64,000 bases of DNA from an uncultured Thermoleophilia bacterium. GTDB taxonomy: Bacteria > Actinomycetota > Thermoleophilia > UBA2241. Below are positions 14,592 through 46,128 of the stretch, in pieces. The stretch's first letter is position 1, and each line of letters opens with the position of its first letter. The notes beneath the pieces are model-generated. The model did not search any database, had not been told where the DNA came from, and saw only the letters and a program-made list of their open reading frames with translations. The stretch covers positions 55,051 to 119,050 of the forward strand of contig CAWEHE010000012.1 of the NCBI GenBank assembly GCA_963808735.1. The letters run 5' to 3'. The position numbers and the translations under genes are program-made.

Positions 14592-14983
14592 TCAGGCGGG
14601 CGGCGGCGCGGACCGCGCCGCCCGCCACAGGGCGTCGGCGGGCTGCCAGATGTGCCGCCACAGCCTGAACTCCCCGACTGCCGGGTCGCCGCAGACCACG
14701 CGCATCGCCGCGCGCCAGTACAGGCGGACCGGCTGGACGCTCGCGATATCGCGCCAGGGCACGCAGATCGCGGCCTGGACCCCTTGGGCGGAGGCCGGGC
14801 CTGCAGCCACAGACCCTCGTCCGCCACCACCACCGTCACGCAGAACTTGTAGGCCACGGTGTGGGCGAACATGACACTCTGCCGCTCCCAGCGCGCGCCC
14901 GGGGGCTCGGGTCCGCCGGGGAAGCGGGCGGCGAGGGCGTCGTAGCCGCCGGCGCGGTTGGCGGCTCGGGTGAAGATGCTCAT
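14592..14983 (-). CDS. Hypothetical protein; one frameshift
   Basis: MSIFTRAANRAGGYDALAARFPGGPEPPGARWERQSVMFAHTVAYKFCVTVVVADEGLWLQARPPPKG joins (near 14775) to VQAAICVPWRDIASVQPVRLYWRAAMRVVCGDPAVGEFRLWRHIWQPADALW. Composition is non-repetitive and protein-like. I do not recognise a family. Confidence 0.4.
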
Positions 14984-15070
14984 GACACAACCGTACAGCT
15001 TCGCGCGACGCCGGAGAAGAGCCCGCGCGCGCCGGACACGACGGCCGCGAGCCCGCCGCGGCGGCGCGAC

Positions 15071-16367
15071 TCAGCCGGCGGCCGTCGGGCGGTCGGCCGC
15101 CGTCACCCGGCTGCCGTGCGGCACGGCGAGCACGCCGGCGTCGTCGCCGTAGCGCGCGAGCGCCTCCGCGACGGCGTCGTCCACGCGCGCGAACGGCCGG
15201 AAGCCCATGCGGCGCACCACGTCGTCGGGGAACTCGGAGACCAGCCACACGTCGGCGCTCGTGAGCAGCCCGGCGATGGCCGCCGCCTTGTGCCCGCCGA
15301 GCACGAACTCCCGCCGGATGCGGTCGATCACCGCCCGCGGGTTCTCCATGTCGCCCATCCACGCCGCGAACGTCTCCTCGCCGAACCCCTCCGCGCACTC
15401 CGCGACGAGGATGATGGTCCCGCCGTCGCGCACCGCCCCCGACACGTTGTCGAGCGTCTTCTGCGCCTGGTAGAGGTTGATGTCCTTGGGGCTGCCGCCG
15501 GGCGAGGCGACGACGACGTCCACGGCGCGGTCGATGCGCATGTCGAAGAGCTCGTCGTAGCGGCGCACGCCCTCGGCGTGCGCCTCCAGGTAGTGGCCGG
15601 CGACGCAGTCGACGATCTGCTTCTTCTCGTTGAGCAGCACGTTGACGATGAAGTCGACGCCCACGAGGCCGCCGGCCTCGTCGATGTCGTCGCGCACCGG
15701 GTTGCCGCGCAGGATGCCGGCCTTGGCCGACGGCTCCAGCATCATGCTGTGGTTGGGCTGGATGGCGCTGCGCCGGCAGATGCCGGGCATGACGGCCTTG
15801 GCGCCGCCGCTGTAGCCGGCGAAGTAGTGGTACTCGAGGTTGCCGGTGCAGACCTTGAGGTCGGCCTCCACGTACGGCCGGAAGACCTCGAGCGGCGTGC
15901 CGCGGGAGGTGTGGCCGACGAGCACGCAGTCGTCCTCGTCGAGGTCAAGGCAGCGGTAGCGGTCCGCGACGGCGTCGCCGACGAGACGGCGGCGCTCCTC
16001 CTCGGTGTGCCGGCGGTGGCTGCCGAGCGCGAACAGGACGGTCACGCGCTCGGGCGGGATCGCGGCCAGCTCGTCGAGGACGAGCTGGAGGAAGCGGTAG
16101 GTCGGGCAGGGCCGCGTGACGTCGCTGACGACGATGGCGGCCGAGCCGGCCGAGGCCGCCAGCTCGCTCAGCGACGGTGCGCCGATGGGCGCGGCCAGCG
16201 CGGCGCGCACGCAGGCCAGCTCGTCGTCGACGCGTGGCCGGCGCCGGCGCGTTGCGGCGCGGACGGACGACGTCCACCAGGTTCCGCGCCGGGACGCGCA
16301 GCTCGAGCTGCTCGCGCCCGTATCCGAGCGTGCAGACGGGCGCTGGGCCCTCCGGGCCGCCCGTCAC
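15071..16367 (-). CDS. larA: Nickel-pincer-cofactor-dependent 2-hydroxyacid racemase/epimerase, LarA family; one frameshift near 16230
   Basis: ...CTLGYGREQLELRVPARNLVDVV / ...AALAAPIGAPSLSELAASAGSAAIVVSDVTRPCP...ALGSHRRHTEEE...CTGNLEYHYFAGYSGGAKAVMPG...NPVRDDI...NLYQAQKTLDN...GGHKAAAIA. These are LarA hallmarks. The GTG start overlaps the pgk TGA (GTGA). Confidence 0.85.
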
Positions 16368-17631
16368 GCCGGGCCCGTGGGCGGGAAGCGCTCCGCCGAC
16401 GCCTTGAGCGCCTCGATCACCGGCATCGGCTTGCCGCTGAGGAACTGCACCATGGCGCCGCCGGCCGTGCACACGTAGTCGAAGCGGCCGCCGAGGCCGA
16501 AGCGGTTCATGGCGGTCACGCTGTCGCCGCCGCCGAGGGCGCTGAAGCCCTGCGTCTCCGCCATGGCCTCCCACAGCGCCTTCGTGCCGTACTCGGTCTC
16601 CGGCTGCTCGAACACGCCGGCCGGGCCGTTGACGAACACGGTGCCGGCGGCGGCGATGACGGCCTCGTACTCGCGCCACGGTCCCGTGCCCGAGGTCGAC
16701 GAGCTGCTCGTCGACCGGCAGGTCGACCACGTCGACCTCCGCCCGCGCCCCGTCCTGCACGTACGCCAGGTCCGCCGGCAGCACGACCTTGTCGCCGTGC
16801 TCGGCGAGGATGGCCTTCGACTCCTCGACGAACTTCTCCAGCTGGCTCGCCCTGATGAACTCCATGGACGGCGCGCCGATGTCCACGCCTTCGGCGGCCA
16901 GCATGACGTTGGCCACCAGGCCGGCCGTGAGCACCGTGTCCACGACGCCGTCGCGCAGGGCCGCGGCCATCATCGGGAACGCCTCCTGGATCTTGGTGCC
17001 GCCGAGCAGGAAGACGCACGGGCGGGCCGGGTCCTCGCGCAGGTGCGCCAGGTTGGCGTACTCCTTCTCGAACAGCCGGCCCATGGCCGACGGCAGCAGC
17101 TGCTCGAAGCCGACCAGCGTGGGCTGCGAGCGGTGCGCGGCGGCGAAGGCGTCGCACACGTACAGGTCGGCGAGCGGCGCCAGCTTGCGCACCACCAGCG
17201 TCTTCGCCTGGTCCTCCGGCGAGAGGTTCAGCTTCGTCTCGAAGAGCGTGAGCTCCTCGCCGCAGAAGCGCACGTTGTCGAGGAGCAGCACCTCGCCGTC
17301 GGCGAGGCCGGCGACCGCGTCCCGCGCGGCCGGCCCGCAGACGTCGTCGATGAACCCGACCGGCCGCCCGATGAGCTCGCTCATCACCGCGGCGTGCGGC
17401 TCGGTGGAGGCGTAGTTGTGGTACTCCAGGTCGCCGCCCTGGTGGGCGAGCAGCACGACCTTCGCGCCGGCCTCCGCCAGCTCGCGCACCGTCGGCGCGC
17501 AACCCTTCAGCCGCGTGACGTCGCGCAGCCCGCCGGTCTGCCTTGTCGAGCGGCGCGTTGATGTCCACGCGGCACAGGACGGTCTTGCCCGCCCAGGCGA
17601 AGTCGTCGAGGGTGTTGATGCCGTACTTCAT
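16364..17631 (-). CDS. pgk: Phosphoglycerate kinase, archaeal-type; frameshifted (near 17540 and 16690)
   Basis: MKYGINTLDDFAWAGKTVLCRVDINAPLDK / VRELAEAGAKVVLLAHQGGDLEYHNYASTEPHAAVMSELIGRPVGFIDDVCG...LLLDNVRF...VCDAFAAAHRSQPTLVGF...FLLGGTKIQEAF / FVNGPAGVFEQPETEYGTKALWEAMAE...SALGGGDSV...YVCTAGGAMVQFLSGKPMPVIEALK. Confidence 0.85.
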
Positions 17632-17710
17632 CGCCGCGCCGCTCCTCTCTGCGCCGCGGCGCGGCCGGCCGGCGCAGGCCGCCCGGCCGCGCCTCGTCAT
17701 GCGCTTGCCG

Positions 17711-18733
17711 TCAGGCGAGCCCCAGGTACTTGTTGGTCAGGCCCACGGCCTCGAGGCGGTCGGTCTGCATGCTCGAGCGCCGCGCGGATGCCGTCCATGG
17801 TCTCGGGGATCACCACCGCTTCCTGCGGGATGTTGATGGCGAACATGAAGTCGCGGCCGCTCTTGGCGATGGTCTCGTCGAACACGGCGATGTCGTACAT
17901 GTCGGCGCGCTTGTTGCCGAGGTCGCGGGCGTAGCGGAAGAGCGCCGCGTTGCTGTTGAAGCCGTCGGCGATCTTGACGTTGCGGATGCGCGGGTGCGCC
18001 TCGAACAGCTCGAGGGCCCGCTCCTTGCTGATGTCGCCCTTGGTCGTGGCGATCACGTTGATGATGTGGCCGTGCGTGGTGGGCACGTGCACGAGCAGGC
18101 CGGTGGCCTCGATGTGCGGCATGATCGTCATGAGGTCGAGCGGCCTGGTGGTTCGGCACGGGCTCGACCTGGGCCACGTCCACGAGCCCGCGGTGCGTGT
18201 CGCCGGGGTCGGCGACGCGGCGCACGATGGTGACGATGACGCGCTCCACGCCGACCTCGCGGTCGAGGCAGTCCACGGCGCGGATGAGGCCGGTGGTGTT
18301 GCAGCTCGTCAGCTTGAGGTAGTCCTTGCCGACGCCCTTCTCGTAGTTGGCGTAGCCGTGGAAGAACACGTCCACGATGTCGTTCTTCTCGCCGCCCTGG
18401 AAGATCGCCTTGACGCCCTTGGCCTGGTAGAGCTCCTTGTTCTTGCGGCCGACGCCGCCGGGCGTGGAGTCGAGCATGATGTCGACCTTGCCGAGCAGGT
18501 CGTCCATCGTGCCGCTCACGGGGATGCCGACCTCGTCGAAGGCGGCCTTCTGGCCGGCCTCGACGCACGTACAGGTCGTACGGCATGCCGGCCTCGCACA
18601 GCGCCCGCGTGGACAGGGTCGGGGCGACGTCGACGACGCCGACCAGCTCCATGTCCTCCTGCAGCGCCACGCCGTCGGCCAGCCGCTGGCCGATGACGCC
18701 GTACCCCGCCACACCCACTCTTGGCTTGCTCAT
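17711..18733 (-). CDS. gap: Type II (archaeal-type) glyceraldehyde-3-phosphate dehydrogenase; frameshifted (about 3 changes)
   Basis: MSKPRVGVAGYGVIGQRLADGVALQEDMELVGVVD / GVKAIFQGGEKNDIVDVFF...KDYLKLTSCNTTGLIRAVDCL...ERVIVTIVRRVADPGD / IMPHIEATGLLVHVPTTHGHIINVIATTKGDISKERALELFEAHPRIRNVKIADGFNSNAALF...MFAINIPQEAVVIPETMDGIRAALE. The KAIFQGGEK, SCNTTG and IVRRxADP motifs match archaeal GAPDH. The ATG overlaps the aminotransferase TGA (ATGA). Confidence 0.85.
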
Positions 18734-20164
18734 GTCTCCGCTCCTTGGAATGTCAGCTCGCGCCGCTCAGCCGCGCGGCGGTCGTACCCCAGGTCCTTCT
18801 CGACGACGGCGATGGACTCGTCGAGCACGCTCACGATGGTGTCGATCTGCTCCTTGGAGATGATGAACGGCGGCGCGACGGCGTGCACGTGGCCGCCGCC
18901 CAGCAGGCGCACGAAGACGCCGCGCTTGAAGGCCTCGTCGCGGATCTTCGCGGCGACGCCCTGGGCCGGCGCGAACCACTCGTGCGTGTCCTTGTCCTTC
19001 ACGTACTCGATGCCGGCCACCATGCCCACGCCGCGCACGTCGCCGACGATGGGGTGCTTGAGCAGGGTCTGAGGCCCTCCTGCAGGTACGGGCCGACCTC
19101 GGCGCAGCGCTCCACGAGCTTCTCGCGCACCACGATCTCGAGGTTGGCGATGCCGGCGGCGCAGCACAGCGGGTGGCCCATGTAGGTGGCGCCGCTCATG
19201 AAGGCCTCGCCCGGGCCGCCCAGGAACCCTTCGTACACGTGGTCGCGGGCGAGCACGGCGCCCAGCGGCAGGTAGCCGCTGACGAGAGGCCCTTGGCGAG
19301 CGTGACCAGGTCGGGGTTCGAGCCGAACTGCTCGAAGCCGAACCAGGTGCCGCTGCGGCCGAAGCCGGTGATGACCTCGTCGTTGATGACGAGCACGTCG
19401 TTGGCCTTGCAGATGTCGTTGACCATGGGCCAGTACTCCGGCGGCGGCGGGATGACGCCGCCGGTGCCGATCATGGTCTCGCCGAGCATGGTGCCGACGT
19501 TCTCGGGGCCGTAGAACTCGATCTCGTGCGCCACCTGCGTGGCGCACTCCATCTTGCAGTCCTCGCCGTAGGTCTTGTTCCAGGCGCACTGGTAGCAGTA
19601 CGGGGCGCCGAGCTTGATGAAGCCGGGCAGCAGCGGCTCGAACTTGGCGCGGTTCACGGTGAGGCCCTGGGCGCTGGTGCTGGTCATGGTCGTGCCGTGG
19701 TAGGAGCGCTCACGGAACATGACCATGTACTTGGTGCCCTTGCCCTTGTTGCGCCAGTACTGCCGCGCCATCTTGACGGCGGTCTCCACCGACTCGCCGC
19801 CGCCCAGCGTGAGGAACACCTTGTTCAGGTCGCCGGGCGCCAGTTCGGCGACCTTGGCGGCGAGCTTGATGGCCGGCTCGTTGGCGATCTGGAAGATGTG
19901 GTAGATCGCCAGCTTCTCCATCTGCGCCTTGATGGCGTCGTAGATCTCGGTGCGGCCGTGGCCGACGTTGACGGTCCAGAGGCTGGCGAAGGCGTCGATG
20001 TACTCGTTGCCCTCGGTGTCGTAGACGACGCAGCCCTCGGCCCGGTCCATGATGATGGGCTTGAGGTTCTGCATCTGCGTGAACGGCGGCCAGAGGTGCC
20101 CGAGGAAGTCCTCCTGCAGCGACTCCCCCTGAAGCGCGCCGCCGGCCTGCACGTCGTCTGCCAT
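18730..20164 (-). CDS. Class III PLP-dependent aminotransferase (omega-transaminase type); two frameshifts (near 19290 and 19075)
   Basis: MADDVQAGG...HLWPPFTQMQNLKPIIMDRAEGCVVYDTEGNEYIDAFASLWTVNVGHGR...FLTLGGGESVETAVKMARQYW...ERSYHGTT...VLVINDEVITGFGRSGTWFGFEQFG.NPDLVTLAKGL / SGYLPLGAV...MSGATYMGHPLCCAAGIANLE / ...HPIVGDVRGVGMVAGIEYV...GHVHAVAPPFIISKEQID. Confidence 0.85.
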
Positions 20165-20200
20165 GGCTCCTCCCTCGCGTGTTATCCACCCAGGTGGAAA

Positions 20201-20229
20201 AACCTAGGTGGTCGACGGTCTGATGTCAA
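20201..20229 (-). promoter_or_regulatory. Candidate sigma-70-type promoter for the aminotransferase-gap-pgk-larA unit
   Basis: Minus strand reads TTGACA (20229-20224), 17 nt, TAGGTT (20206-20201). It lies in a locally AT-richer patch and is followed by GGGAGGAG and ATG 20164. A 9-bp hairpin (CCACCTAGG ... CCTGGGTGG) overlaps the -10/leader. Confidence 0.4.
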
Positions 20230-20254
20230 TATCGATGATGGGCGGCGCGAGCGG

Positions 20255-21690
20255 TCAGAAGGCGGGAGCGACGCCGCACACGTCGGCGAGCGCGGCGAGC
20301 TGGTCGTCGCTCAGCGCCGGCCGCCAGTCCTCACGGGCCGCCAGCATGCGCCGCCACGCGCTCGCGCGCGACATCCACCTCGTCCTGGCCGTCGGCCTTC
20401 CAGGCGTCGTAGGACGTGCGCGCGGAGACGACCGAGCGGAACTGCTCGCCGGCGCGGACGCGCTTGCGCGTGTCCTTCTCGGCGAGGAAGTGCCCGCCGA
20501 TGCCCACCCGCTCGACCGCCTCGGCGAGGATCTCGTCGTGCGAGACGGTGACCTCGCCCAGCAGGCGGCGGATCATGGCCGGCGAGCTCGCAGTCGATGA
20601 CGATCTGCGGCAGGTACAGCAGGTCGACCGAGTCGAGCATGCCGACGCCGCCGGAGAGGATGTCCGCGCCGGCGGCGCACGACGTGAGGCCGCGGAGAGC
20701 CTTCTCGTACCCCGCCTGGATGCCGGGGTGCTTGGCGTCGGTGCCGAGGCCCGGCACCGTGACCGGCACCCCGAGCAGGTGGCCGACCTCGATGGACGCG
20801 GCCGCCATGAGCAGCGACTCCGGCGCGCCGTAGGCGACGCGGGCGGCGCGCATGTCCATGATGTTGCTGGACGCGCCGAAGAGCAGCTTGGCGCCGGGCA
20901 CCACGCTCTGCACGGCCGTGGCGACGCCCATGAACTCGGCGACGGCGAGCGTGACCCCGGCGGAGATGGTGATGGGCGCCGTCGCCCCCGACATCGGGAT
21001 CGTGTACACCTTGACCGGCACGCCGTTCGCGGCCGCCTCGATGTGGAAGTCGAGCGTGTCGCCGTCGGCCTGCAGCGGCGACGCGGCCGTGAGCAGCGTG
21101 CTGAACCGGGGGCGCGCCCTGAACGCGTCGAGGTCGCCGCAGACGATCTCGGCGATGCGCAGGAGCGGCTCGATCTGCGACGGGCAGTCGACGAACGTGA
21201 CGTGCTTGTCCGACTGCGTGAACATCGTGTAGAAGGTCGTGCGCTCGCGCACGTCCAGCGGGACGTCGTTGGCCGTCACCGTCGTCCAGATGAGGTCCAC
21301 CTCGGGCGAGGCGTCGAGGAGCGCCGTAGCCTTGCTGGAGGTCGTCCAGCGTGGAGAGCCGGCGCTCGCCGGTGGCGTCGTCCAGCACGAAGGCGCCGCA
21401 GCCCGAGGAGCAGAAGTGCGGCCCTCGCCGTCGGCCAGGCGCACGTCCTGCTCCGGGGTGGCGCCGGCCATGACCACCTCGCGCGGGCACGCCTCGAGCG
21501 CGTCGCGCACGAGCTGCGGAGGGAAGCGCACCACGCCGGTGGCGAAGTCCACCGTGGCACCGGCGGCGTCCAGCGCGCCGAGCGCCCGCGAGCCCGTCAT
21601 GCGCATCCCCACGCGCTCGAGGAGAGCCAGGGCCTCCTCGACGATCAGCGACTTCTCGGCATCGCTGAGCCAGGTCGTGCGCTGCTGCAT
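20255..21690 (-). CDS. Trimethylamine methyltransferase (MttB) superfamily protein, non-pyrrolysine type, copy 1; about 4 frameshifts
   Basis: MQQRTTWLSDAEKSLIVEEALALLERVGMRMTG... / GPHFCSSGCGAFVLDDATGERRLSTLDDL / LDASPEVDLIWTTVTANDVP...VTFVDCP...GVPVKVYTIPMSGATAPITISAGVTLAVAEF...SNIMDMRAARVAYGAPESLLMAAASIEVGHLLGVPV...GTDAKHPGIQAGYEKAL...GADILSGGVGMLDS / MIRRLLGEVTVSHDEILAEAVERVGIGGHFLAEKDTRKRVRAGE / ...ALSDDQLAALADVCGVAPAF. No in-frame TAG in the alignable core. Confidence 0.8.
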
Positions 21691-21749
21691 GGGGGCGTCC
21701 TTTCGCTTGCCCGCGCGGACGGGGACGGGCGCGCGGGGCTGGAAGAGCC

Positions 21750-21787
21750 GGGCGGGCGGCGGCCCCCTCCGAGGCCGCCGCCCGCCC
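21750..21787 (-). terminator. Perfect 15-bp GC hairpin between ABC ATPase stop and mttB-like start
   Basis: gggcgggcggcggcc (21750-21764), 8-nt loop ccctccga, ggccgccgcccgccc (21773-21787). It starts 6 nt after the TGA at 21793-21795 on the minus strand. Only a weak U-stretch (ucuucc) follows. Confidence 0.45.
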
Positions 21788-21792
21788 GCGGA

Positions 21793-23591
21793 TCAGGCGT
21801 CGACCGTGACCGGCTCGATGGTCGGCGTGTCGGCGAGGAGCTTGCGGGTGTACTCGTCCTGCGGGTTCGCGAGCACGTCGTCCGTCGGTCCGTACTCGAC
21901 GATGCGGCCCTCGCTCATGACCGCCACGTCGTAGGCGATGCTGCGGATGAGGGCCAGGTTGTGCGTCACGAACAGCATGCAGAGGCCGATCTCCTTCTGC
22001 AGGCGCACGAGCAGCTCCACGATGGAGGCCTGCACGGAGACGTCGAGCCACGACGTGACCTCGTCACAGACGAGCACGGTGGGCTCGGCGGCGAGGGCCC
22101 GCGCGATGGCCACGCGCTGGCGCTCCCCGCCCGAGAGCTGGTCCGGGTAGCGCCCCAGCAGCGTGTCGTCCAGCGAGACGAGATCGAGCACCTCGGCCAG
22201 ACGGTCCTCGCGCTGGTCCCGCGTGTAGTCGAAGAAGATCTGCAGCGGCTGCGAGAGGATCTGGGCGATCGTCTTGCGCGGGTTGAGCGAGCTGTACGGG
22301 TTCTGGAACACGTACTGGATCGAGTGGCGGAGCGCGCGCGAACGGCTGCGGGCGAGCCGCGGGAGCTCCTTGCCCTGGAAGCTGATCTCGCCCTCCACCT
22401 TGAACGGGTGCAGACCGGCGATGCAGCGGGCCAGCGTCGTCTTGCCGCTGCCTGACTCACCGACCAGCGCGAGGCACTCGTGCGCGCGCAGGGTGATGTC
22501 GATGTCGTGCAGGATCTCCTTCTTGCCGTACCAGGCGGTGACGCCGCGCACGGCGACGAGACCCTCCTCGCCGCCGCTCTGCGAGCGCCGCGCCGTCTTC
22601 GCCGGTGATGACCGGCGCCTGGTTGCGGACCTCCTCGTTGCGCCAGCAGCGCACGCGGTGGAACTCACCGACCTCGGCCTCCGGCGGCATCTCCTTCTCG
22701 CACTGCTCGATGGCGTAGGAGCAGCGCGGCTCGAAGGCGCACCCGGGCGGCCGGCGTCCGGGACGCGGCGCGAACCCGGGGATGCCCTCGAGCGTGCGCC
22801 GCCCGCTGAGCACCGGGATCGCGTGCAGCAGTCGGCGCGTGTAGGGGTGGCTGGCGCCGGCGAACAGCTCGGCCGCCGGGCCGATCTCCACGAGCCGCCC
22901 GGCGTACATGACGGCGATGCGGTCGGCCAGCTCCGCCACGACCGCGAGGTCGTGCGTGACGTACACGGCCGCGGCGCGGTGCGTCTTGGTGAGATCGCGG
23001 ATGGTGTCGAGCACGTGGGCCTGCGTGGTCACGTCGAGGCCGGTGGTGGGCTCGTCCAAGCACGATGATCTTGGGCCGGCAGGCGAACGCCATGGCCAGG
23101 GCCACGCGCTGCTGCTGGCCGCCGGAGAGCTGGTGCGGGTAGCGGCGCAGGAACTCCCTGTCGCTCGGCAGGAGCACCTCGGCCATCATCTCCGCGATGC
23201 GGTCCTGGCGCTCCTCGTCGCTCTTGCCGAAGTTGTGCACCTCGAGGATCTCGCGAAGCTGCAGGCCGATGCGCAGCGCGGGGTTCAGCGCCGAGCCCGG
23301 GTCCTGCGGCACGTAGCTGATCACGCCGCCGCGCAGCTGGCGCAGCTGGCCGGCGCCGAGCGAGAGCACGTCCTTCTCGTCGATCGTGATGCTGCCGCCG
23401 GAGATCTTGGCGCCGCGACGCTGGAAGTTGAGCAGCGACGTCGCGGCGGTGGTCTTGCCGGAGGCGGACTCGCCGACGAGGCCCAGGACCTCGCCCTCGA
23501 CGAGCTCGAAGTTGACCTCGTGGTCGATCTCGACGCCGGAGGGGTCGAGGGCGATCTCGAGATCCTTGACGGTGAGGATGATCTTGCTCAT
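21793..23591 (-). CDS. ABC transporter ATP-binding protein with two fused ATPase domains (DppD/DppF-like); frameshifts near 23060 and 22590
   Basis: Domain 1: [14 protein letters not shown] (Walker A), [15 protein letters not shown], then [12 protein letters not shown] after a shift, and SHPYTRRLL...CAFEPRC (oligopeptide C-terminal motif). Domain 2: [47 protein letters not shown]. The linker ...[13 protein letters not shown] / [14 protein letters not shown] joins the two. Confidence 0.8.
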
Positions 23592-23592
23592 C

Positions 23593-24577
23593 TCACGCCC
23601 CCGTGTCCCGCTCGATGCCGATCATGGCCCGCGAGATGCCGTCGGTGGCGAGGTTCACGCCGATCGTGAGGATGGCGATGAGCGCCACCGGGATGAACAC
23701 CGAGTAGGGCTGGATGATGAGGCCGATGCGGTTCTCGTTGATCATGAGGCCCCAGTCGCAGGCCGGCGGCTGCATGCCGAAGCCGAGGAAGGAGAGGGCG
23801 GCGATGAGGCCGATGGAGTAGGTGAGGCGCAGGCCGAACTCCACGAACAGCGGGCTCGTGATGGTCGGCAGGATCTCTCCGAAGGCGATCTTGAGGCGCG
23901 ACACGCCCAGCGACTCGGCCGCCTTGACGAAGTCGCGCTCCTTGACCTCCAGCGTGGATCCGCGGGCGACGCGGGCGATGCGCGGCGCGTGCGAGAGGCC
24001 GACAGTGAGCACGATCAGCCAGAGGCGCGGCCCCAGCACCGACACGAGCAGCAGCACCAGCACGATCTGCGGGAAGGCGAGGAAGACGTCGAGGAGACGC
24101 ATGATGACGTCGTCCACGGCCGCACGCGCGTAGCCGGCGAAGAGGCCGAGCGAGACGCCGATGACCATGCCGATGGCGGTCGCGATGAACGAGAGGATGA
24201 GCACGGAGCGGCCGCCGTAGAGCACGCGGCTGAGCACGTCGCGGCCGAGCACGTCGCCGCCGAGCCTGGCCACGGAGCTGGGCTTGGCGAACGGCGCCAC
24301 GACGAACTCGAAGGGCGAGTGCGGCGCCACGTAGGGGCCGATCACGGCGATCGCCAGGATGAGCGAGGAAGAGGCCGAGGCCGATCTGCGTGCGCCGGTA
24401 GTGCAGGGCGTCGGCGAGCAGCTGCAGCCACTCGCTGCGGCGCCGCTTGCCGCGGACCGGCGCCATGCCCAGGTCGTGGCCCAGCTGCGGCTCGAGCGGC
24501 TCGTTGAGGCCTTCGTCGGGGCCCAGGTTGATGTCGCTGGTCACTCCCATTCTGAGGATGGAGGCGTCTGTACTCAT
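23593..24577 (-). CDS. ABC transporter permease (DppC/OppC-like); one frameshift near 24350
   Basis: ...IGPYVAPHSPFEF...GGDVLGRDVLSRVLYGGRSVL...DVIMRLLDVFLAFPQIVLVLLL...VKERDFVKAAESLGVSRLKIAFGEILP (EAA-type loop). The ATG overlaps the upstream permease TGA (ATGA). Confidence 0.8.
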
Positions 24578-25535
24578 TGCAGACCCGTCCTCAGCCGCGG
24601 GCTGACGAGGATGGTGAGGATGTCGGCGATGAGGTTGAAGCCGACGTAGAGGCTGGCGATGAGGAGCACGATGGCCTGGATGACCGGCACGTCGCGGTTG
24701 GCGACGGCGTCGACGAGGCCCGAGCCGATGCCGGGGTAGTTGAAGAGGTACTCGACGACCACGACGCCGCCGGCGAGCCAGGCCAGGTTGAGGGCGATGA
24801 CCTGGATCGCGGGGATGACCGCGTTGGGCAGGGCGTGCCGCCGCAGCACGATGTTCTCGGGCATGCCCTTGAGGCGCGCCATCTGCACGTACTCGCTCTC
24901 GAGCACCTCGATCATGGAGGCGCGCAGGATGCGGATGATGTAGGGCGCCACGGCGAGGATCAGCGTGAGCGCCGGGAGGATGAGCATGTCCATCTGCTGC
25001 CAGATGGACTCCCCGGGTTCACGCGCGATACCGCCGGGAAGATGTGGAAGACCTGCGTGGCCAGCAGCATGATCAGGAGGATGCCGATCACGAACTCGGG
25101 CAGGGCGGCGAGGCCCAGGCTCCCGAGCGAGACGGCCGTGTCGAAGGGTCTGTCTCGTAGCAGCCCGCTCAAGCTGCCGATGAGGATGGAGATGGGGATG
25201 CTGATGATGGCGGCCACGAACACGAGCGCCGCCGAGTTCATGATGCGGTTGCCGAGAAGCGTCATGACCGGCTGAGAGGCCACGAGGGAGTCGCCGAGGT
25301 CGCCCCTGACGATGTTACCGAGCCATTTTGCGTACTGCGTGGTGGCCGGCTCGTTGAGCCCCAGCCGCTCGCGCAGTTCCTTGAGGCGCTCGGGCGTGGC
25401 CGAGCGGCCCAGGATGGCGCGCGCCGTGTCGCCGGGAAGCGCCTGCGTGGCCGCGAACACGAGCACCGACACGAGGAAGAGTGTCAGTATCCCGAGCCCC
25501 ACGCGGCGCAGGATGATCTTCAGCAAGGGTGGCAC
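24574..25535 (-). CDS. ABC transporter permease (DppB/OppB-like); one frameshift near 25010
   Basis: MPPLLKIILRRVGLGILTLFLVSVLVFAATQALPGD...LGLNEP...YAKWLGNIVRGDLGDS / ...LILPALTLILAVAPYIIRILRASMIEVLESEYVQMARLKGMPENIVLRRHALPNA. Confidence 0.8.
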
Positions 25536-25621
25536 TTCCCGCCGACCTCCTTTGGTACGCAGGTGGGGCCGGCGCCGGTAGCGGCGCCGGCCCCACTCCG
25601 GTCAGTTCGCGCTGCCGTCCG

Positions 25622-27289
25622 TCAAGCGAAGTACACGAGATTGAAGCGGCCCTTGTTGGCGGCCTCGGCGCCCCACGTGTCGGGGATGACGCCGCCGAGC
25701 TTGTCGCTGTAGCCGTCCAGCAGGTTGTTGAACGACCAGACGATGTTGCCGCCGGAGTTGTACTCGATGGTGCTGGCCTCGGTGATCAGCTCGTTGCGCT
25801 TGGCGTCGTCCACCGTCTTCATGGCTTCTTCGACCAGGGCCACCCACGTGGGGTCGTCCCAGTGCGTCTCGTTGTACACGGCTCCCGGGATGGTGCCGAC
25901 CGACGTCTGCGGCAGGTAGTTCCGCGTCGCCCAGAAGTCCATGGCGAAGGTCCACTTGAGGTAGTCGTCGCCGTAGAACACGCTGGGGTCGACCTGCTTG
26001 ACGTTGATGGTCACGCCGGCGGCCTTGGCCTGCTGCGCGTACACCTGGGCGGCCTGCACGCCGCCGGCGCCGGTGGCCGTGGAGCAGACGAGCTCGACGG
26101 TGAGGTTACCGTCGTAGCCGGCCTTCTTGAGCAGCGACTTGGCCTGCTCGATGTCCTGCTCACGCTGTGGCAGGTCGCTCGGGTAGCCGGGGTCGAACGG
26201 CGCGTACATGTCGTTGCCGACCCACCCGTAGCCGCCGTAGGCCTGGTCGATCATCTGCTGGCGGTCGAGGATGTACTTGAAGGCCTGGCGGACGTCGACG
26301 CTGTCGAACGGCTTCTGGTCGACGCGCACCGTGAAGGGCTGCCAGCCGCCGGTCTTGGCCTCGAGAAGCGTGTAGCCGGGAGTAGCCTTGAGCGTGGCCG
26401 CCTGGGTGGCGTCGACGATGACCGCGTAATCGACCTGGCCGCCGAGCAGGGCGTTGAGCTTGGCGGTGGGATCGGCGAACTCGACGAACGTCAGGGTGTC
26501 TGCGTAAGGACCCTCGCCCCAGTAGTTCTCATTGGCGGCGAACTCCTCCTGCTGGCCCGGGGTGAACGACGTGACCTTCCACGGGCCGGTGCCGATGGCG
26601 CCCTCCATGCCCTTGGGCGCGTAGTCCACCGGCACGATGGCGTTGTTGTAGTACGCCAGGGCCTCGTAGAAGATCACGTTGGGCTTGTCGAGCGTGAACT
26701 GCACCGTGAGGTCGTCCACCTTCTTGATGCCGGCGGCGTTGAGACCGGAGAGCATGTCCAGGCCGATGGCGCCTGTCTTGGGATCCAGGATGCGGTTGAA
26801 GCTGTAGACCACGGCGTCCGCGTTGACCGGCGAGCCGTCGTGGAACGTGAGACCCGACTTGAGCTTGACCGTGTGCGTCTGGCCGGTCGAGTCAGGTTCG
26901 TAGGTCTCCGCCAGCAGCATCTCCAGCTTGTGCTCGGGGTCCCACCCCATGAGCGAGTCGTACAGCTGGAACTGCGTGCTGATCTGCGTCTCTGTGGTGG
27001 CGATCTGCGCGTCGAGCGTGTCCTTGGCGGAGCCGCCGCCGATACCCACCTTGAGGGCGCCGCCCTTCTTGGGCCCGCCGGCAGCGGCCGAACCCGAGGC
27101 GGCCGGCGAAGCGGTCTCGCTCGAGCTGCTGCTGCCGCACGCGGAGGCCACGGAGCCGAACGCAGCGACCGCGCCGACGGCGGCCGCGCCCTTCAGCAGG
27201 CCACGCCGCGTCACGCGCTTGTCGTTGACCACCTCGTAGATCTCACCGACTTCGAACCCTGAGTTCTTGTCCTGCTGAGTCACTTGCAC
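25622..27289 (-). CDS. ABC transporter substrate-binding protein, family 5 (peptide/opine/nickel type), TAT/lipobox signal; intact
   Basis: Uninterrupted 555-codon ORF. RRGLLKGAAAVGAVAAFGSVASACGSS gives twin-Arg plus lipobox Cys. GGALKVGIGGGSAKDTLD...TYEPDSTGQTHTVKLKSGLTFHDGSPVNADAVVYSF is typical of SBP_bac_5. The start could be the GTG 6 nt downstream. Confidence 0.85.
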   Translation of the reverse strand: MQVTQQDKNSGFEVGEIYEVVNDKRVTRRGLLKGAAAVGAVAAFGSVASACGSSSSSETASPAASGSAAAGGPKKGGALKVGIGGGSAKDTLDAQIATTETQISTQFQLYDSLMGWDPEHKLEMLLAETYEPDSTGQTHTVKLKSGLTFHDGSPVNADAVVYSFNRILDPKTGAIGLDMLSGLNAAGIKKVDDLTVQFTLDKPNVIFYEALAYYNNAIVPVDYAPKGMEGAIGTGPWKVTSFTPGQQEEFAANENYWGEGPYADTLTFVEFADPTAKLNALLGGQVDYAVIVDATQAATLKATPGYTLLEAKTGGWQPFTVRVDQKPFDSVDVRQAFKYILDRQQMIDQAYGGYGWVGNDMYAPFDPGYPSDLPQREQDIEQAKSLLKKAGYDGNLTVELVCSTATGAGGVQAAQVYAQQAKAAGVTINVKQVDPSVFYGDDYLKWTFAMDFWATRNYLPQTSVGTIPGAVYNETHWDDPTWVALVEEAMKTVDDAKRNELITEASTIEYNSGGNIVWSFNNLLDGYSDKLGGVIPDTWGAEAANKGRFNLVYFA

Positions 27290-27487
27290 TCCCCCTGTCC
27301 TGAGACTTCCACCGGCTCAGCCCACCCCGGCCGGCATGTGCGGCCCGCACCCGCGCGGGTCGAGACGTCTGCTGTGACCTGCTCTTCTACGAGTGATCGA
27401 ACCCCCTTGGACTGCTCTGGCGAATCGCGGGAGGCGGGGACTGTCGGCACAATGTATCCGCCCGGGTGGTTCGCCAAGTTGGAAGGG

Positions 27488-27517
27488 ACTCTAGAAGCCC
27501 GCGTTCCGTCTTGTCAA
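27488..27517 (-). promoter_or_regulatory. Candidate promoter of the ABC transporter operon, implying an approximately 190-nt leader
   Basis: Minus strand reads TTGACA (27517-27512), 18 nt, TAGAGT (27493-27488). The downstream leader contains nested inverted repeats (GGCGAA...CCCGGGCGG...CCGCCTCCCG...TTCGCC; ACCCGC/GCGGGT). Confidence 0.35.
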
Positions 27518-27776
27518 TAACGAATGGTCCGGGCACACTAGCACCCGCGGTGACCGGGGACAAGGCCTAGTAACGGAATCAGAAGGAAGAACCCCACAAG
27601 GCCTCAGCTTCTTCATCGACTCTGCCGATTTGGTTTGCCTTGTCGCAACGGAACGAGCAGAAGACTTGCAGATGCAGAACAGCGACTCCATCCATCGGCG
27701 CCCGCCTTGCGTCCCTCCGTCCCGGCGGATACGACGACCCGTATGATAGGTGGCGGGTGTCCTGTTCGTCAACGCA

Positions 27777-27805
27777 TTGACAGTAGTTCCTCCGGTCGAT
27801 ACTAC
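27777..27805 (+). promoter_or_regulatory. Candidate promoter of the Lrp/AsnC regulator gene
   Basis: TTGACA (27777-27782), 17 nt, TACTAC (27800-27805). The -10 is weak, and an alternative GATACT sits 2 nt upstream. Confidence 0.3.
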
Positions 27806-27877
27806 TGAGTACGGGAGTATCACCGTTCCCGATGCCCCTGACCTGTACTGGCTGCGGGAGGACTCGAGCCCGCGCGA

Positions 27878-28390
27878 GTGGGATATCATGCGGGAACGAC
27901 GGAACAGGGGGGCGACGTGGACGATCTCGACCGGCGGATCCTTGTCAAGCTGCAGGAAGACGGCAGCCTGACGAACGCACGTCTCGCCGAGACCCTCGGT
28001 CTGTCCCAGTCGGCGATGTCCGAACGCGTGCGCCGCCTGCAGCAGGAAGGCCACATCCAGGGCTACCGCGCCATCATCGCTCCCGGCAGCCTGGGCATCG
28101 GCCTGCAGGCGTTCGTGGCGGCGGAACTCGTGCGGCACGGCACGGACTGCATCGAGGAGTTCGAGGGGGGCGTGCGGGCCTTGCCGGAGATCCGTGCCTG
28201 CTACCACGTCGCCGGCCGCTTCGACTATCTCCTGCACGTCGCCGTGCGCGACCTCGAGCACCTCGGCCGGGTGGTCAAGCACGACATCGCCGCCATCCCG
28301 GGCGTGGACCGGGTCGAGACCATGCTGGTCTACTCCGAGGTCAAGCCCGACGCCGGCTGGCCGGAGCCCGACGACGGGCCGGCGGAGTAG
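27878..28390 (+). CDS. Lrp/AsnC family transcriptional regulator; intact
   Basis: DDLDRRILVKLQEDGSLTNARLAETLGLSQSAMSERVRRLQQEGHIQGY (HTH) followed by a RAM/ACT-like domain (...ACYHVAGRFDYLLHVAVRDLEHLGRVV...IPGVDRVETMLV). An alternative start is GTG 27917. Stop is TAG. Confidence 0.85.
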   Translation: MGYHAGTTEQGGDVDDLDRRILVKLQEDGSLTNARLAETLGLSQSAMSERVRRLQQEGHIQGYRAIIAPGSLGIGLQAFVAAELVRHGTDCIEEFEGGVRALPEIRACYHVAGRFDYLLHVAVRDLEHLGRVVKHDIAAIPGVDRVETMLVYSEVKPDAGWPEPDDGPAE

Positions 28391-28435
28391 CCGCGCGGGC
28401 GGCGCGCAAGGCGCGCCGACGTCCGCTGCCGTAGC

Positions 28436-29866
28436 TCAGTCGACCGCGCCGCACACCTCTGCCAGGGCGGCGAGCTGGTCGTCGCTCAGCAGTGAGCCGT
28501 TCCCCTGTTCTTCTCTGCCGCCAGCGTGCGCTCGACGATGTCGCGCGCCTCGTCGATCTCCTGGCGGCCCTCGGCGATCCACTGCTCGAAGGGGAGGCGG
28601 CTGCCGATGACCGGCTGGAAGTGTTCGCCCGCGCGCACGCGCTCGCGCGTGGCCTTCTCCTTGAGGAAGTTGCCGCCTACGCCGACGCGCTCGATCATGT
28701 CGAGCATGATCGTCTCCGGCGTGATCTCCGCACCGTCGACGACGCGCTTGACCATGCGCGCCACCTCGGCGTCGATGGGCACCATGGGCAGGTGCCACAC
28801 GCTCGACGAGTCGAGCGCGCCGAAGCCGCCGCTGATGAGGTCGACCCCCGTCAGGGCCGCCGGCAGGGCCTTCATGCCCTTCTCGTAGCCGGCCTGCAGC
28901 CCCGGGTGCTTGGCGTCGCTCGAGAGCCCGGGGTTGTGGACCGGCAGACCGAGGTGGTGGCCGATCTCCACCGAGGCGACACCCATCAGGGTGTTCTCGG
29001 GCGACCCGAGCGACATGGAACTCGTGCGCATGTCCAGGATGCCGGGGCCGCAGCAGGCGAGGACCGGCGCGCCGGGGGCGGCGACCTGCGTGACGGTCAC
29101 CATGCCCAGCAGCTCCGCCCACATCTGCGCGAGCGTGCCGGCGACGGTGATCGGCGACGTGGCGCCGACCATGGTCATGCAGTAGGCGAAGATGGGTGCG
29201 CCCAGCCGCGCGAACTCGCACGTGACGTCGAGCAGGCGGCTGTTCACTTCGAGCGGCGCACGGACGGCGCACACAGGCCGAGGCGCGGGTGCCGCGGTGC
29301 GCCTCGAGGCTGCCGCTGAGGATCTCCATGATGCGCCGCACCGGCTCGGTCTCGTGCGGGCAGTCCACCATCACGAGCGGCTTCGAGGTGCTGCTGAGGT
29401 ACGCGTGGTACTCCAGCAGCTCACGCTGCTCGATGGGGACGTCGTTCGCGGTCGCGAACGTCCACATGAGGTCGAGCTCCGGCGTGGCGTCCATGACCGT
29501 GGAGCCCTCGCGGATGTCCTGGAGGGTCGCGGGCCTCAGCTGCCCGGTGCGGAAGTCGAGCGTCTTGGCGATGCAGGCGGAAGGGTTGAAGTGCGGGCCG
29601 TTGACACGGTCGAAGACGATGTCCTGCGCCGCGGTGGCCCCGGCCATGCCCCACGCGGGGGGCAGCGTGGACAGCGCCTCGCGAACGAGCGCCTCGGGCA
29701 TGCGCACGACACCGGTCTCGTGATCCACGACGGCGCCGCGCTCTTCCAGGGGCCCGAGGATCTCCGCGCCCTTGAAGCACATGCCCACGCGCTCGAGCAC
29801 GGCCAGCGCAGAGTCGATGATGAGGTCCCGCTCACTCGCGCTCAGCCAGCTCAGCCTGCACTTCAA
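28436..29866 (-). CDS. MttB superfamily methyltransferase, non-pyrrolysine type, copy 2; frameshifts near 29275 and 28500
   Basis: TTG start after AAGGAG. MKCRLSWLSASERDLIIDSALAVLERVGMCFKG...GPHFNPSACIAKTLDFRTGQLRPATLQDI...MDATPELDLMWTFATANDVP...LVMVDCP / ...GAPIFAYCMTMVGATSPITVAGTLAQMWAE...GILDMRTSSMSLGSPENTLMGVASVEIGHHLGLPV...SSDAKHPGLQAGYEKGM...GVDLISGGFGALDS...MIERVGVGGNFLKEKATRERVRAGE / ...LSDDQLAALAEVCGAVD. About half of the residues match copy 1 by eye. Confidence 0.8.
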   Translation of the reverse strand: MKCRLSWLSASERDLIIDSALAVLERVGMCFKGAEILGPLEERGAVVDHETGVVRMPEALVREALSTLPPAWGMAGATAAQDIVFDRVNGPHFNPSACIAKTLDFRTGQLRPATLQDIREGSTVMDATPELDLMWTFATANDVPIEQRELLEYHAYLSSTSKPLVMVDCPHETEPVRRIMEILSGSLEAHRGTRASACVRRPCAARSEQPPARRHVRVRAAGRTHLRLLHDHGRRHVADHRRRHARADVGGAAGHGDRHAGRRPRRAGPRLLRPRHPGHAHEFHVARVAREHPDGCRLGGDRPPPRSAGPQPRALERRQAPGAAGRLREGHEGPAGGPDGGRPHQRRLRRARLVERVAPAHGAHRRRGGAHGQARRRRCGDHAGDDHARHDRARRRRRQLPQGEGHARARARGRTLPAGHRQPPPLRAVDRRGPPGDRRGARHRRAHAGGREEQGNGSLLSDDQLAALAEVCGAVD

Positions 29867-30086: not shown

Positions 30087-30600
30087 TCATGCCTCGGGCG
30101 GCGCCAGGCTCTTGCGGACGTCCTTCATGCGCAGCATGAGGTGGGACGGGTCCGTCGGTGACGGCACGAAGCCGTACCTCTCGTAGAAGCCCCGCGCCCG
30201 CTCGGTGGGAGCCTCGGCGACCACGGCCCGGGCGAACATGGTGCCGGAGGCCTGCAGGCTGCGGCTCAGGGCCTGGACGAGCATTGCCTCGCCGAGGCCC
30301 TCACCCTGCGCCGAGCCGTCGACCGCGAGGCGCGCCAGCAGGACGGCCGGCACCTCGCGAGGCCCCTTGCCGGCGGCCGGCACCTGCGTGTCGGGCCGCG
30401 GCCCCACGCTCGCCGCCTTCAAGCTGAAGTAGGCCAGCGGCCGGCCGTCGCGCGCGAGCACGCGAGTCTTGCCGGCGCGCTGCTCGGCCAGGGCGCGCTC
30501 CGCGAGGAACGCGTCCAGGGCCGGCTCGCCGCAGGCGAAGCCGGCCACGTCGTCGGCAGCGGCCAGGGCGCGGACGTCCGCAGCGGCCTCGCGCGGACGC
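30087..30600 (-). pseudogene. GNAT-family acetyltransferase toxin (TacT/AtaT-like) lacking a recognisable start codon
   Basis: ...VRALAAADDVAGFACGEPALDAFLAERALAEQRAGKTRV...YFSLKAASV...PAVLLARLAVDGSAQGEGLGEAMLVQALSRSLQASGTMFARAVVAEAPTERARGFYERYGFVP...LMLRMKDV matches toxins paired with DUF1778 antitoxins. There is no ATG/GTG/TTG in frame upstream of the conserved core. Confidence 0.6.
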
Positions 30601-33572: not shown

Positions 33573-33609
33573 GGTGACCTCCGTGGTCTGTGCTGCGCGG
33601 CCGCCGGCG

Positions 33610-42008: not shown

Positions 42009-42155
42009 CTGCTACCTTCCTTCGCTGCGTCACGGCCGGATGCCGGGACAGTCTACCGCCGCCCGAGGCGGCGCCGGCGCCGGGCCCTGCGGTAGAGGCC
42101 CGGCGCCGGCGGAAGCACGGCGGAGAAAGGGGGAGGACCTCCGCCGCGCACGCCG

Positions 42156-46046: not shown

Positions 46047-46128
46047 GTGTGAACCAGGAGGTTGACGAAGGAGAGCGGTGGCGGCACGCCGCTGCGACGG
46101 GCCGCCACCGCGAAGGTCACGAAGAGCC

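Follow-up and report, generated by a model that had tools for sequence, protein, structure and literature searches.

A GAPDH-II, PGK and LarA module in a Thermoleophilia operon as a possible ATP-yielding route from D-malate semialdehyde to malate

A 64-kb window of DNA from an uncultured Thermoleophilia bacterium (the window being the whole stretch of 64,000 nucleotides that was analysed; G+C ~71%) carries five genes on its minus strand, encoding an MttB-family methyltransferase of the non-pyrrolysine (non-Pyl) type (20255-21690), a class III (omega) aminotransferase (18730-20164, hereinafter designated AT3), a type II glyceraldehyde-3-phosphate dehydrogenase paralog (17711-18733, GAPDH-II), an archaeal-type phosphoglycerate kinase paralog (16364-17631, PGK) and a LarA-family nickel-pincer enzyme (15071-16367). 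We lean slightly towards the view that this operon turns amine-derived D-malate semialdehyde into malate with a gain of ATP, through GAPDH-II, the PGK-like protein and LarA. A broader claim, for which we regard the balance as even, is that bacterial GAPDH-II is a phosphorylating D-malate-semialdehyde dehydrogenase and its PGK partner a malyl-phosphate kinase, neither of them glycolytic, and that together with malate racemase the two would make up a widespread ATP-yielding module underlying at least two undescribed pathways. The two pathways that we propose, at the same evenly balanced confidence and as part of that joint claim, are a myo-inositol route that depends on transketolase, in anaerobes of gut and sediment that lack iolC and iolJ, and a carnitine-type amine demethylation and transamination route in soil Thermoleophilia. 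A preliminary description, made from the letters of this DNA, had placed the five genes on one strand at these positions, as is borne out by Pfam matches and by start and stop positions read from the DNA.

The terminal enzyme sets the chemistry of the proposed route. Both LarA domains are recognized (Lar_N and LarA_C, Pfam E 2.9e-55 and 5.4e-20), and the best Protein Data Bank (PDB) match of the window protein is the malate racemase Mar2 (6D6Z/7S91, E 3e-106), with lactate racemases matching at E-50 to E-57. In NCBIfam, the intact ortholog in locus L003 (L-numbers label the related loci compared with the window operon) scores highest, with 476 bits, against the model 'nickel-dependent malate racemase, LarAH6 family'; the lactate racemase model gives 327. 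Alignment to Mar2 and offset counting locate the motifs DVTRP, GSHRRHT, EYHYFAGYSGGAK and PNHS, and the equivalents of the catalytic H108 and H174 of LarA1 and of its nickel-pincer nucleotide (NPN) ligands R75, K184 and H200 are all present. The positions of LarA1 W358 and T359 are occupied by H and K; the segment GGHKAA, present in 36 of the 47 LarAs of the module, aligns with GAHKAA of Mar2 and with QW-Q of a broad-spectrum racemase. This H-K pair has been described as the malate racemase signature, its Lys pairing with the second carboxylate, and glycerate and lactate racemases bear other signatures at these positions (Urdiain-Arraiza et al., PMC11770544). The window LarA is thus a predicted malate racemase, so the product of the operon would be malate and the aldehyde malate semialdehyde; the earlier suggestion that LarA adjusts a 2-hydroxy stereocentre is supported and can be sharpened to malate. 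The role of malate racemase in vivo was left as an open question by Desguin et al. (PMC7583248), in whose context table PGK and malic enzyme appear merely as unexplained COG neighbours.

GAPDH-II and PGK were recognized from the outset as archaeal forms, and their closest structures are indeed those of Pyrococcus horikoshii (2CZC, E 4e-72, and 2CUN, E 1e-83, respectively), archaeal GAPDH structures being ~45% identical to the window protein. The catalytic Cys motif SCNTT is found in 79 of 79 GAPDH-II members and the His of the PTT..H motif is kept. The Lys that marks NADP use in archaeal GAPDH (the Lys33 position) is replaced by Asp, GV(S/T)K becoming GV(V/A)D in 78 of the 79, a change that fits NAD+-linked oxidation rather than the anabolic role of the archaeal enzyme. 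A second family-wide change turns archaeal PSHHGP into P[NS]HQA (79 of 79). We propose that the window GAPDH-II is a putative phosphorylating malate-semialdehyde dehydrogenase, malate semialdehyde being the substrate favoured by context.

The next enzyme has the PGK fold with its nucleotide-binding C-domain, and an intact ortholog carries the GGGDS and GPAGVFE motifs. In yeast PGK, R38, H62, R65, R121 and R168 are the ligands of the 3-phosphate of 3-phosphoglycerate (3-PG). The paralog lacks the complete basic patch, having lost the equivalent of R65: where SHLGRP (Bacillus stearothermophilus) and THQGKP (P. horikoshii) have a basic residue, 66 of 69 PGK-like members carry Gly, Ser or Asp (AHQG[G/S/D]; AHQGGD in the window). 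The protein is proposed to be a putative malyl-phosphate:ADP kinase.

The association of these genes reaches well beyond the Thermoleophilia. We scanned a single genome of each species with a GAPDH-II homolog alignment, and at least 527 species genomes proved to hold a close relative. The closest among the matches listed (90-98%) are metagenome-assembled genomes (MAGs) of Thermoleophilia and Actinomycetes, many of them long-read soil assemblies, and matches at 66-75% identity come from Anaerolineales, Desulfovibrionaceae, Treponema, Atribacterota, Synergistaceae and Clostridia, the last comprising Clostridium magnum (two copies), C. pascui, C. peptidivorans, Christensenella, Dorea, Lachnospiraceae, Oscillospiraceae and an Acetobacterium MAG. 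We counted neighbours in the 58 loci with at least 4 kb of sequence downstream of GAPDH-II. A PGK-like gene follows directly in 55 of them (median gap ~90 nt), and a LarA homolog is present in 38, an Iso_dh protein of the tartrate/D-malate type in 6, and one or other of the two in 44. Split transketolase occurs in 19 loci, malic enzyme in 15, a class III aminotransferase in 11 and an E1/E2/E3 2-oxoacid (acetoin-type) dehydrogenase complex in 7. The Iso_dh partner, which often stands in where LarA is absent, scores as tartrate dehydrogenase (TIGR02089, 516 bits, over the cut-off). The combination of GAPDH-II and PGK with LarA or a D-malate/tartrate dehydrogenase spans Actinomycetota, Bacillota, Chloroflexota, Desulfovibrionaceae and Treponema. 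Conservation of the neighbourhood, which the preliminary description had proposed as a check, therefore holds for the GAPDH-II/PGK/LarA core far past close relatives, with the upstream feeder genes varying. The gene order is kept in ~12 Thermoleophilia/Actinomycetes loci, and so the arrangement is not due to chance; MttB, the aminotransferase and the Dpp-type transporter accompany the module in this group only. Sampling from the LarA side recovered malic enzyme-LarA pairs in Pseudothermotoga and Biomaibacter and a full transketolase...LarA-GAPDH-II-PGK set in Tepidimicrobium. The module appears to be an extra copy in its hosts, C. magnum having two in two different catabolic clusters.

The inositol loci of Clostridia bear most directly on the identity of the aldehyde. 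Their gene order is sugar ATP-binding cassette (ABC) system, malic enzyme, GAPDH-II, PGK-like, split transketolase, IolB, IolD, IolE, IolG, LarA and PfkA, as seen in clusters of C. magnum, C. peptidivorans, C. pascui, a Lachnospiraceae MAG and a Christensenellaceae MAG (L042, L057, L053, L035 and L048); LarA is found in four of the five, with none in range in the C. pascui locus L053. IolD, IolE and IolG exceed their equivalog cut-offs, and IolC, IolJ, IolA and any other aldehyde dehydrogenase are absent from all five clusters. IolG, IolE, IolD and IolB yield 5-dehydro-2-deoxy-D-gluconate, a ketose whose configuration is the D-threo one needed by transketolase. By stereochemical reasoning, removal of a C2 unit from this ketose by transketolase would leave D-malate semialdehyde. 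GAPDH-II and the PGK-like protein appear to be the sole enzymes left in these clusters to connect the aldehyde with malate racemase (Mar) and malic enzyme, and it is for this reason that we take the aldehyde to be D-malate semialdehyde.

In the window operon the same aldehyde would be supplied by AT3 (Aminotran_3, Pfam E 1.2e-61), which carries the pyridoxal-phosphate lysine motif TLAKG and finds its best PDB matches among amine:pyruvate, putrescine and GABA (4-aminobutyrate) transaminases. Because the terminal LarA is a predicted malate racemase and the GAPDH-II substrate would be malate semialdehyde, we infer that the substrate of AT3 should be 4-amino-3-hydroxybutyrate, whose (R) form has the skeleton of L-carnitine and would give D-malate. 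On the opposite strand downstream of LarA, L001 (13634-20971), L003 and L011 encode an FAA_hydrolase, an iron-dependent alcohol dehydrogenase (Fe-ADH), an acetyl-CoA hydrolase/transferase and an HpaB-family protein, after which comes glutamate dehydrogenase. The set resembles the 4-hydroxybutyrate/GABA fermentation genes of Clostridium aminobutyricum, and lends weak support to a C4 omega-amino acid theme. It is not adjacent in the window, where only an FAA_hydrolase homolog is found, far off at 52559-53222.

Put together, the operon suggests the following sequence of events. The Dpp-type ABC system may import an N-methylated amine or a conjugate of one, and the non-Pyl MttB-family enzyme would remove one methyl group, its partners and any further demethylations not being encoded here. 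The omega-aminotransferase would then convert the primary amine, for which (R)-4-amino-3-hydroxybutyrate (L-carnitine stripped of its methyl groups) is the most plausible candidate, to D-malate semialdehyde (3-hydroxy-4-oxobutanoate), an assignment that follows from the identity of the end product. GAPDH-II would form a thioester on the conserved Cys, and NAD+-linked oxidation followed by phosphorolysis would give malyl phosphate; the Cys, the His and the NAD-type Asp are seen in the sequence. The PGK paralog, with one phosphate-binding basic residue lost, would transfer the acyl phosphate to ADP, yielding D-malate and ATP, and LarA, whose family is assigned by sequence, is predicted to racemize D-malate to L-malate for the tricarboxylic acid (TCA) cycle. 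In other bacteria, the feeders of the portable GAPDH-II/PGK-like/Mar module would be split transketolase with iolG/E/D/B, an acetoin-dehydrogenase-like complex or transaldolase, and its drains malic enzyme or a D-malate/tartrate dehydrogenase of the decarboxylating kind. The preliminary description had sketched a logic from importer to LarA, whose downstream half, from transamination through acyl phosphate and ATP to LarA, finds strong support in the conserved neighbourhood; its MttB and ABC steps stand much less firmly. That description had known of no pathway with this gene combination, and among the open-access papers and preprints that our searches listed we likewise found none that joins GAPDH-II with PGK and LarA, and none that leads from inositol by way of transketolase to malate semialdehyde, prior publication being possible.

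The operon MttB (Pfam MTTB, E 2.4e-48) belongs to the non-Pyl, betaine-type branch of its family. Its closest PDB structure is the glycine betaine methyltransferase MtgB, there is no in-frame TAG at the pyrrolysine site, and the L001 ortholog falls below the cut-off of the trimethylamine methyltransferase equivalog TIGR02369 (326 against 525). The earlier idea that its demethylation yields a primary amine is weakened by this assignment, since a single demethylation of a quaternary amine would not suffice. In relatives MttB is dispensable: L019 and L020 have a divergent FAD-dependent oxidase of the DAO family upstream of AT3 and no MttB, and in L016 a CocE/S15-type hydrolase precedes MttB. Since the upstream enzymes vary, different demethylating or deconjugating enzymes would feed one AT3-GAPDH-PGK-LarA core, which supports the trimming of an N-substituted amine to a primary amine.

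Several observations weigh against the D-malate semialdehyde assignment. Non-Pyl MttB proteins normally act on quaternary amines, so a single demethylation gives no substrate for an aminotransferase, and no corrinoid protein or URO-D-type methyltransferase was found in the window by tblastn with B12-binding and URO-D-type queries. The transporter is not of the betaine/carnitine type. The intact L003 LarA ortholog scores just below the malate racemase equivalog cut-off of 500, no larB, larC or larE turned up where the 64-kb window was annotated, and a genome homolog 84% identical to the characterised Mar2 adjoins an FAA_hydrolase gene instead of GAPDH-II and PGK. No LarA, tartrate dehydrogenase or malic enzyme match lies in range in 14 of the 58 loci, among which L026 had a LarA match that a stricter filter excluded. 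More generally, every substrate assignment is drawn from genomic context, and the whole proposal rests on comparative genomics.

Other points against that assignment are also the ones that favour its foremost rival, namely that the pair is a genuine glycolytic GAPDH and PGK of archaeal origin, handling triose phosphate or supplying a transketolase acceptor, with LarA and AT3 working on unrelated substrates. A GAPDH relative with 93% identity (P0002) passes the NCBIfam equivalogs for type II GAPDH (NF003251, 380 against 185; TIGR01546, 297 against 233), the catalytic Cys and His, the RR pair and the greater part of the active site are conserved in the GAPDH paralog, and the PGK paralog retains four of the five 3-PG ligands; moreover, transketolase and transaldolase pathways do involve glyceraldehyde 3-phosphate (GAP). 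We nevertheless consider this reading unlikely. C. magnum has two copies of the module, and hosts such as Clostridium already possess standard glycolysis. The iol/transketolase clusters would be left without an enzyme to oxidise the aldehyde that transketolase leaves, yet they contain malate racemase and malic enzyme, and the window operon has no kinase to produce a phosphorylated aldehyde. Finally, the PGK-like proteins lack the basic phosphate ligand across the family, and GAPDH-II has the NAD-type Asp instead of the anabolic NADP-type Lys.

A little less probable still is that the mechanism is right and the 2-hydroxy aldehyde is another one, such as tartrate semialdehyde, sulfolactaldehyde, glyceraldehyde or lactaldehyde. 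Tartrate semialdehyde could arise from 5-keto-gluconate-type ketoses or from 4-amino-2,3-dihydroxybutyrate and would end as tartrate; sulfolactaldehyde would end as sulfolactate. Sulfolactaldehyde is a close analogue of GAP, and the Iso_dh partner scores as tartrate dehydrogenase. Mar-type enzymes epimerise tartrate too (PMC11770544). Against these substitutes, the iolG/E/D/B setting calls for a product of the 2-deoxy type, which means malate semialdehyde, no drain is more frequent than malic enzyme, sulfoquinovose and sulfite genes were not seen in the inspected loci, and the H-K signature indicates a second carboxylate, glycerate and lactate racemases differing at that site. Sulfolactaldehyde/sulfolactate had been our first idea and was dropped in view of the malate racemase-type LarA and of the malic enzyme, tartrate dehydrogenase and iol partners. 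Lactaldehyde, glyceraldehyde and tartronate semialdehyde were set aside as well, either for conflict with the H-K signature or because the product would be achiral.

The operon might also run in the biosynthetic direction: L-malate would become D-malate, which would pass through malyl phosphate and then malate semialdehyde to yield 4-amino-3-hydroxybutyrate, and a methylation might come last. MttB-family enzymes, however, are known as demethylases, an importer and an AsnC regulator stand at the start of the operon, the partners elsewhere are catabolic (iol genes, transporters, malic enzyme, decarboxylating dehydrogenase) and the NADP-type Lys has given way to an NAD-type Asp. Although every step is chemically reversible and archaeal type II GAPDHs operate solely reductively (PMC12525153), we judge this direction very improbable.

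No more credible is a decaying pseudogene cluster with real frameshifts and nothing expressed. The operon does hold at least 15 frame-breaking indels within its 6.6 kb. Nucleotide alignment to relatives placed 1-2-nt indels in every gene: ~4 in MttB, 3 in AT3 (Aminotran_3 is matched in three frame pieces), 3 in GAPDH (Gp_dh_C, split over three or four frames), at least 3 in PGK (Pfam E 3.8e-59, two or three frames) and at least 2 in LarA, where one frameshift lies near the N-terminus; examples are at window positions 18565, 18140, 17775, 19280, 19071 and 20578. With intact orthologs as tblastn queries, each operon protein is spread across two to four frames, and a plot of G+C at third codon positions (GC3) switches frame repeatedly within each of the five genes, its signal tracking the shifted frames, which speaks against decay. 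Three of the insertions in GAPDH are each an extra C immediately 5' of TCGA/GAG, a pattern sought in the other genes as a common motif and not followed there. Fragmented frames occur throughout the 64-kb window, and the related long-read metagenome contig L001 is broken too (PGK C-terminus and binding protein out of frame), whereas relatives assembled as MAGs from short reads have intact versions of the genes. The stitched GAPDH protein is 93-95% identical in amino acids to its closest relatives, and nucleotide identity to L001 is 79% over the whole operon, with values of 82-92% obtained for the GAPDH gene in different alignments. Because the breaks are window-wide, the relatives intact and the GAPDH protein so well conserved, they are most likely uncorrected long-read assembly or sequencing errors, and gene calls from the window require frame correction.

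Such errors also bear on the 4-nt overlaps by which the last four genes were first described as translationally coupled, and of these only the PGK/LarA junction stands, the PGK stop TGA (16364) overlapping the LarA GTG start (16367) as GTGA. An ATGA overlap of AT3 and GAPDH is present in the raw sequence. However, the AT3 genes of relatives stop at GGGTAC-TGA-CC. The T of this stop codon is missing from the window (position 18784), which gives AT3 a 19-aa tail reaching the GAPDH start; the overlap is therefore probably an indel artefact, with the true AT3 stop near 18782. A 79-nt spacer with a good ribosome-binding site separates the GAPDH stop (17711) from the PGK ATG (17631). Overlaps are not conserved in L001 and L003, whose genes stand 18-41 nt apart at the junctions.

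A scan of 14700-28500 revealed no site resembling an intrinsic terminator, in keeping with an operon that is not split internally. The promoter candidate formerly placed at 20201-20229 fell below the criteria of a consensus scan, and the only two promoter-like matches in the same region, at 27743-27772 and 27488-27517 on the minus strand, both lie 5' of the gene for the ABC substrate-binding protein (each 10 of 12 consensus matches, a pattern match only). Given the short spacers, the shared strand, the lack of a terminator-like site and the position of these two matches, co-transcription is likely, probably running from ~27.5-27.8 kb to LarA (15071), so that the operon would take in the Dpp-type ABC system (21793-27283).

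This system, also on the minus strand, comprises a fused double ABC ATPase (21793-23594; frameshifted, matched by the 608-aa L001 ATPase in three frames at 63-69% identity in tblastn), two permease genes (23588-25535; frameshifted, 58-76% identity to the L001 BPD_transp_1 proteins in tblastn) and a family 5 substrate-binding protein of the Dpp/Opp/Nik type (25628-27283; 47% identity over 545 aa to the L001 SBP_bac_5 protein in tblastn). An upstream ABC importer thus exists as first described; its supposed cargo, a methylated amine, is less secure, the system being of the Dpp/Opp type with no informative ligand match in a PDB search. We also considered the Dpp-type system as a nickel importer for LarA; in the PDB its binding protein matches NikA weakly (E-12 to E-26), no better than it matches peptide or opine binders. 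Divergent from the operon, on the plus strand, lies an AsnC/Lrp-family regulator gene (27905-28387; Pfam AsnC_trans_reg, E 1e-20, and HTH_AsnC-type, E 2.3e-13), which is found beside the operon in L001 too. Convergent with it is a second non-Pyl MttB paralog in an upstream unit of its own (28436-29866, minus strand; Pfam MTTB, E 5.8e-14), 41-47% identical to the L001 ortholog of the operon MttB; its tie to the operon is uncertain.

The window also holds, running off its end, a homolog of the dimethylamine methyltransferase MtbB (63256-63932, minus strand; Pfam Dimeth_Pyl) with an in-frame TAG at 63576-63574 (VDGL-TAG-VGTGDP). Its L017 counterpart carries TAG at the identical site, and the gene is therefore a candidate for encoding pyrrolysine in an actinobacterium of the Thermoleophilia type. 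In that Actinomycetes MAG (L017, 6823-9919), AT3-GAPDH-II-PGK-LarA is followed by a BetI-type TetR regulator, the MtbB homolog, an MttB homolog and an SSF transporter, and in both methyltransferase homologs an in-frame TAG occupies the canonical pyrrolysine position. The 64-kb window yielded no tRNA genes.

Elsewhere on the minus strand of the window, a beta-keto acid cleavage enzyme (BKACE, E 3e-98) adjoins a short-chain dehydrogenase (41235-43046); pairs of this kind are known from dehydrocarnitine and lysine-fermentation-type pathways. ATP sulfurylase stands beside a sulfotransferase-domain protein (44832-46857), and pieces of an ADP-forming acyl-CoA synthetase (ATP-grasp_5, CoA_binding_2 and Succ_CoA_lig; 31507-33590) lie upstream of a GNAT acetyltransferase gene (30093-30578). 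A 424-aa open reading frame at 43258-44529 has no Pfam match.

Two further settings of the module were seen among the related loci. In L040, L058 and L074, the GAPDH-II/PGK/malic enzyme/LarA genes lie behind an acetoin-dehydrogenase-like E1/E2/E3 complex, and also behind a xanthine-dehydrogenase-type molybdenum hydroxylase, a metallo-beta-lactamase-fold hydrolase with weak similarity to pyridoxolactonase and an FHMPC-dehydrogenase-like gene; these may serve anaerobic degradation of a pyridine or vitamin B6-type ring. In L002/L018, on a Chloroflexia chromosome (OY970218), transaldolase and a tartrate/D-malate dehydrogenase precede GAPDH-II and PGK, and cyclase-family proteins, a zinc alcohol dehydrogenase and a sugar ABC system follow PGK. 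The transaldolase would be a third kind of module feeder.

The closest known parallel to the proposed amine route is L-carnitine degradation in Acinetobacter baumannii, which proceeds through malic semialdehyde and D-malate to pyruvate by way of a decarboxylating D-malate dehydrogenase (PMC11353897). Both take an amine with the carnitine skeleton to malic semialdehyde and on to a D-malate that needs a dedicated enzyme, and the A. baumannii dehydrogenase is of the same kind as the Iso_dh protein of some module loci. In A. baumannii, however, the Rieske oxygenase CntAB cleaves the C-N bond with release of trimethylamine, a non-phosphorylating aldehyde dehydrogenase forgoes any ATP gain and D-malate is decarboxylated, whereas the window operon would use demethylation and transamination, conserve ATP through the GAPDH/PGK pair and racemize D-malate with a nickel enzyme.

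Lower glycolysis and gluconeogenesis with archaeal GAPDH-II and PGK share with the module both families, their gene adjacency and the chemistry from thiohemiacetal through acyl-enzyme and acyl phosphate to ATP. The proposed pair differs in a substrate with carboxymethyl instead of phosphomethyl, in the Lys to Asp change and the lost basic ligand of PGK, and in its location in accessory catabolic clusters, sometimes with two copies per genome. Mar2/LarAH6 of Thermoanaerobacterium thermosaccharolyticum (PDB 6D6Z; PMC7583248, PMC11770544) has the same catalytic and NPN residues, the same H-K pair and the same association with malic enzyme as the module LarA, but its close Thermoanaerobacterium homolog is not beside GAPDH-II and PGK, and the physiological source of D-malate was left open in the Mar papers.

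The window MttB resembles the known non-Pyl quaternary-amine methyltransferases in Pfam family, in the absence of a pyrrolysine codon and in having MtgB, specific for glycine betaine, as its closest structure. MtcB and MtyB, of the same non-Pyl family, are the carnitine and gamma-butyrobetaine methyltransferases. Known members occur in anaerobes with an adjacent corrinoid protein and a methyl-tetrahydrofolate methyltransferase, neither of which is encoded near the window MttB. With the iolG,E,D,B,C,J,A pathway of Bacillus subtilis, the related Clostridia loci, although not the window, have IolG, IolE, IolD and IolB in common up to 5-dehydro-2-deoxygluconate, and replace IolC, IolJ and IolA with split transketolase, GAPDH-II, the PGK-like protein, Mar and malic enzyme. 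Lastly, a synthetic 2,4-dihydroxybutyrate pathway reportedly uses the other carboxyl, through 4-phospho-malate and 2-hydroxy-4-oxobutanoate. Both it and the proposed module have malyl phosphate and malate semialdehyde as intermediates and rely for their interconversion on a kinase paired with a phosphorylating semialdehyde dehydrogenase, but it was engineered from aspartate kinase and Asd and runs reductively (PMC12104201).

If the proposal is correct, hundreds of bacterial genes annotated as 'type II glyceraldehyde-3-phosphate dehydrogenase' and 'phosphoglycerate kinase' would acquire a new substrate and role, and another substrate-level phosphorylation step would join the known set. The source of D-malate in cells that bear malate racemase would be explained, giving that enzyme its missing physiological role. 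Gut inositol degraders that have iolG/E/D/B and lack iolC/iolJ, which were still being noted in 2026 (PMC13617567), would receive a testable explanation. For soil actinobacteria, the window operon would predict a trimethylamine-free route for carnitine-like amines.

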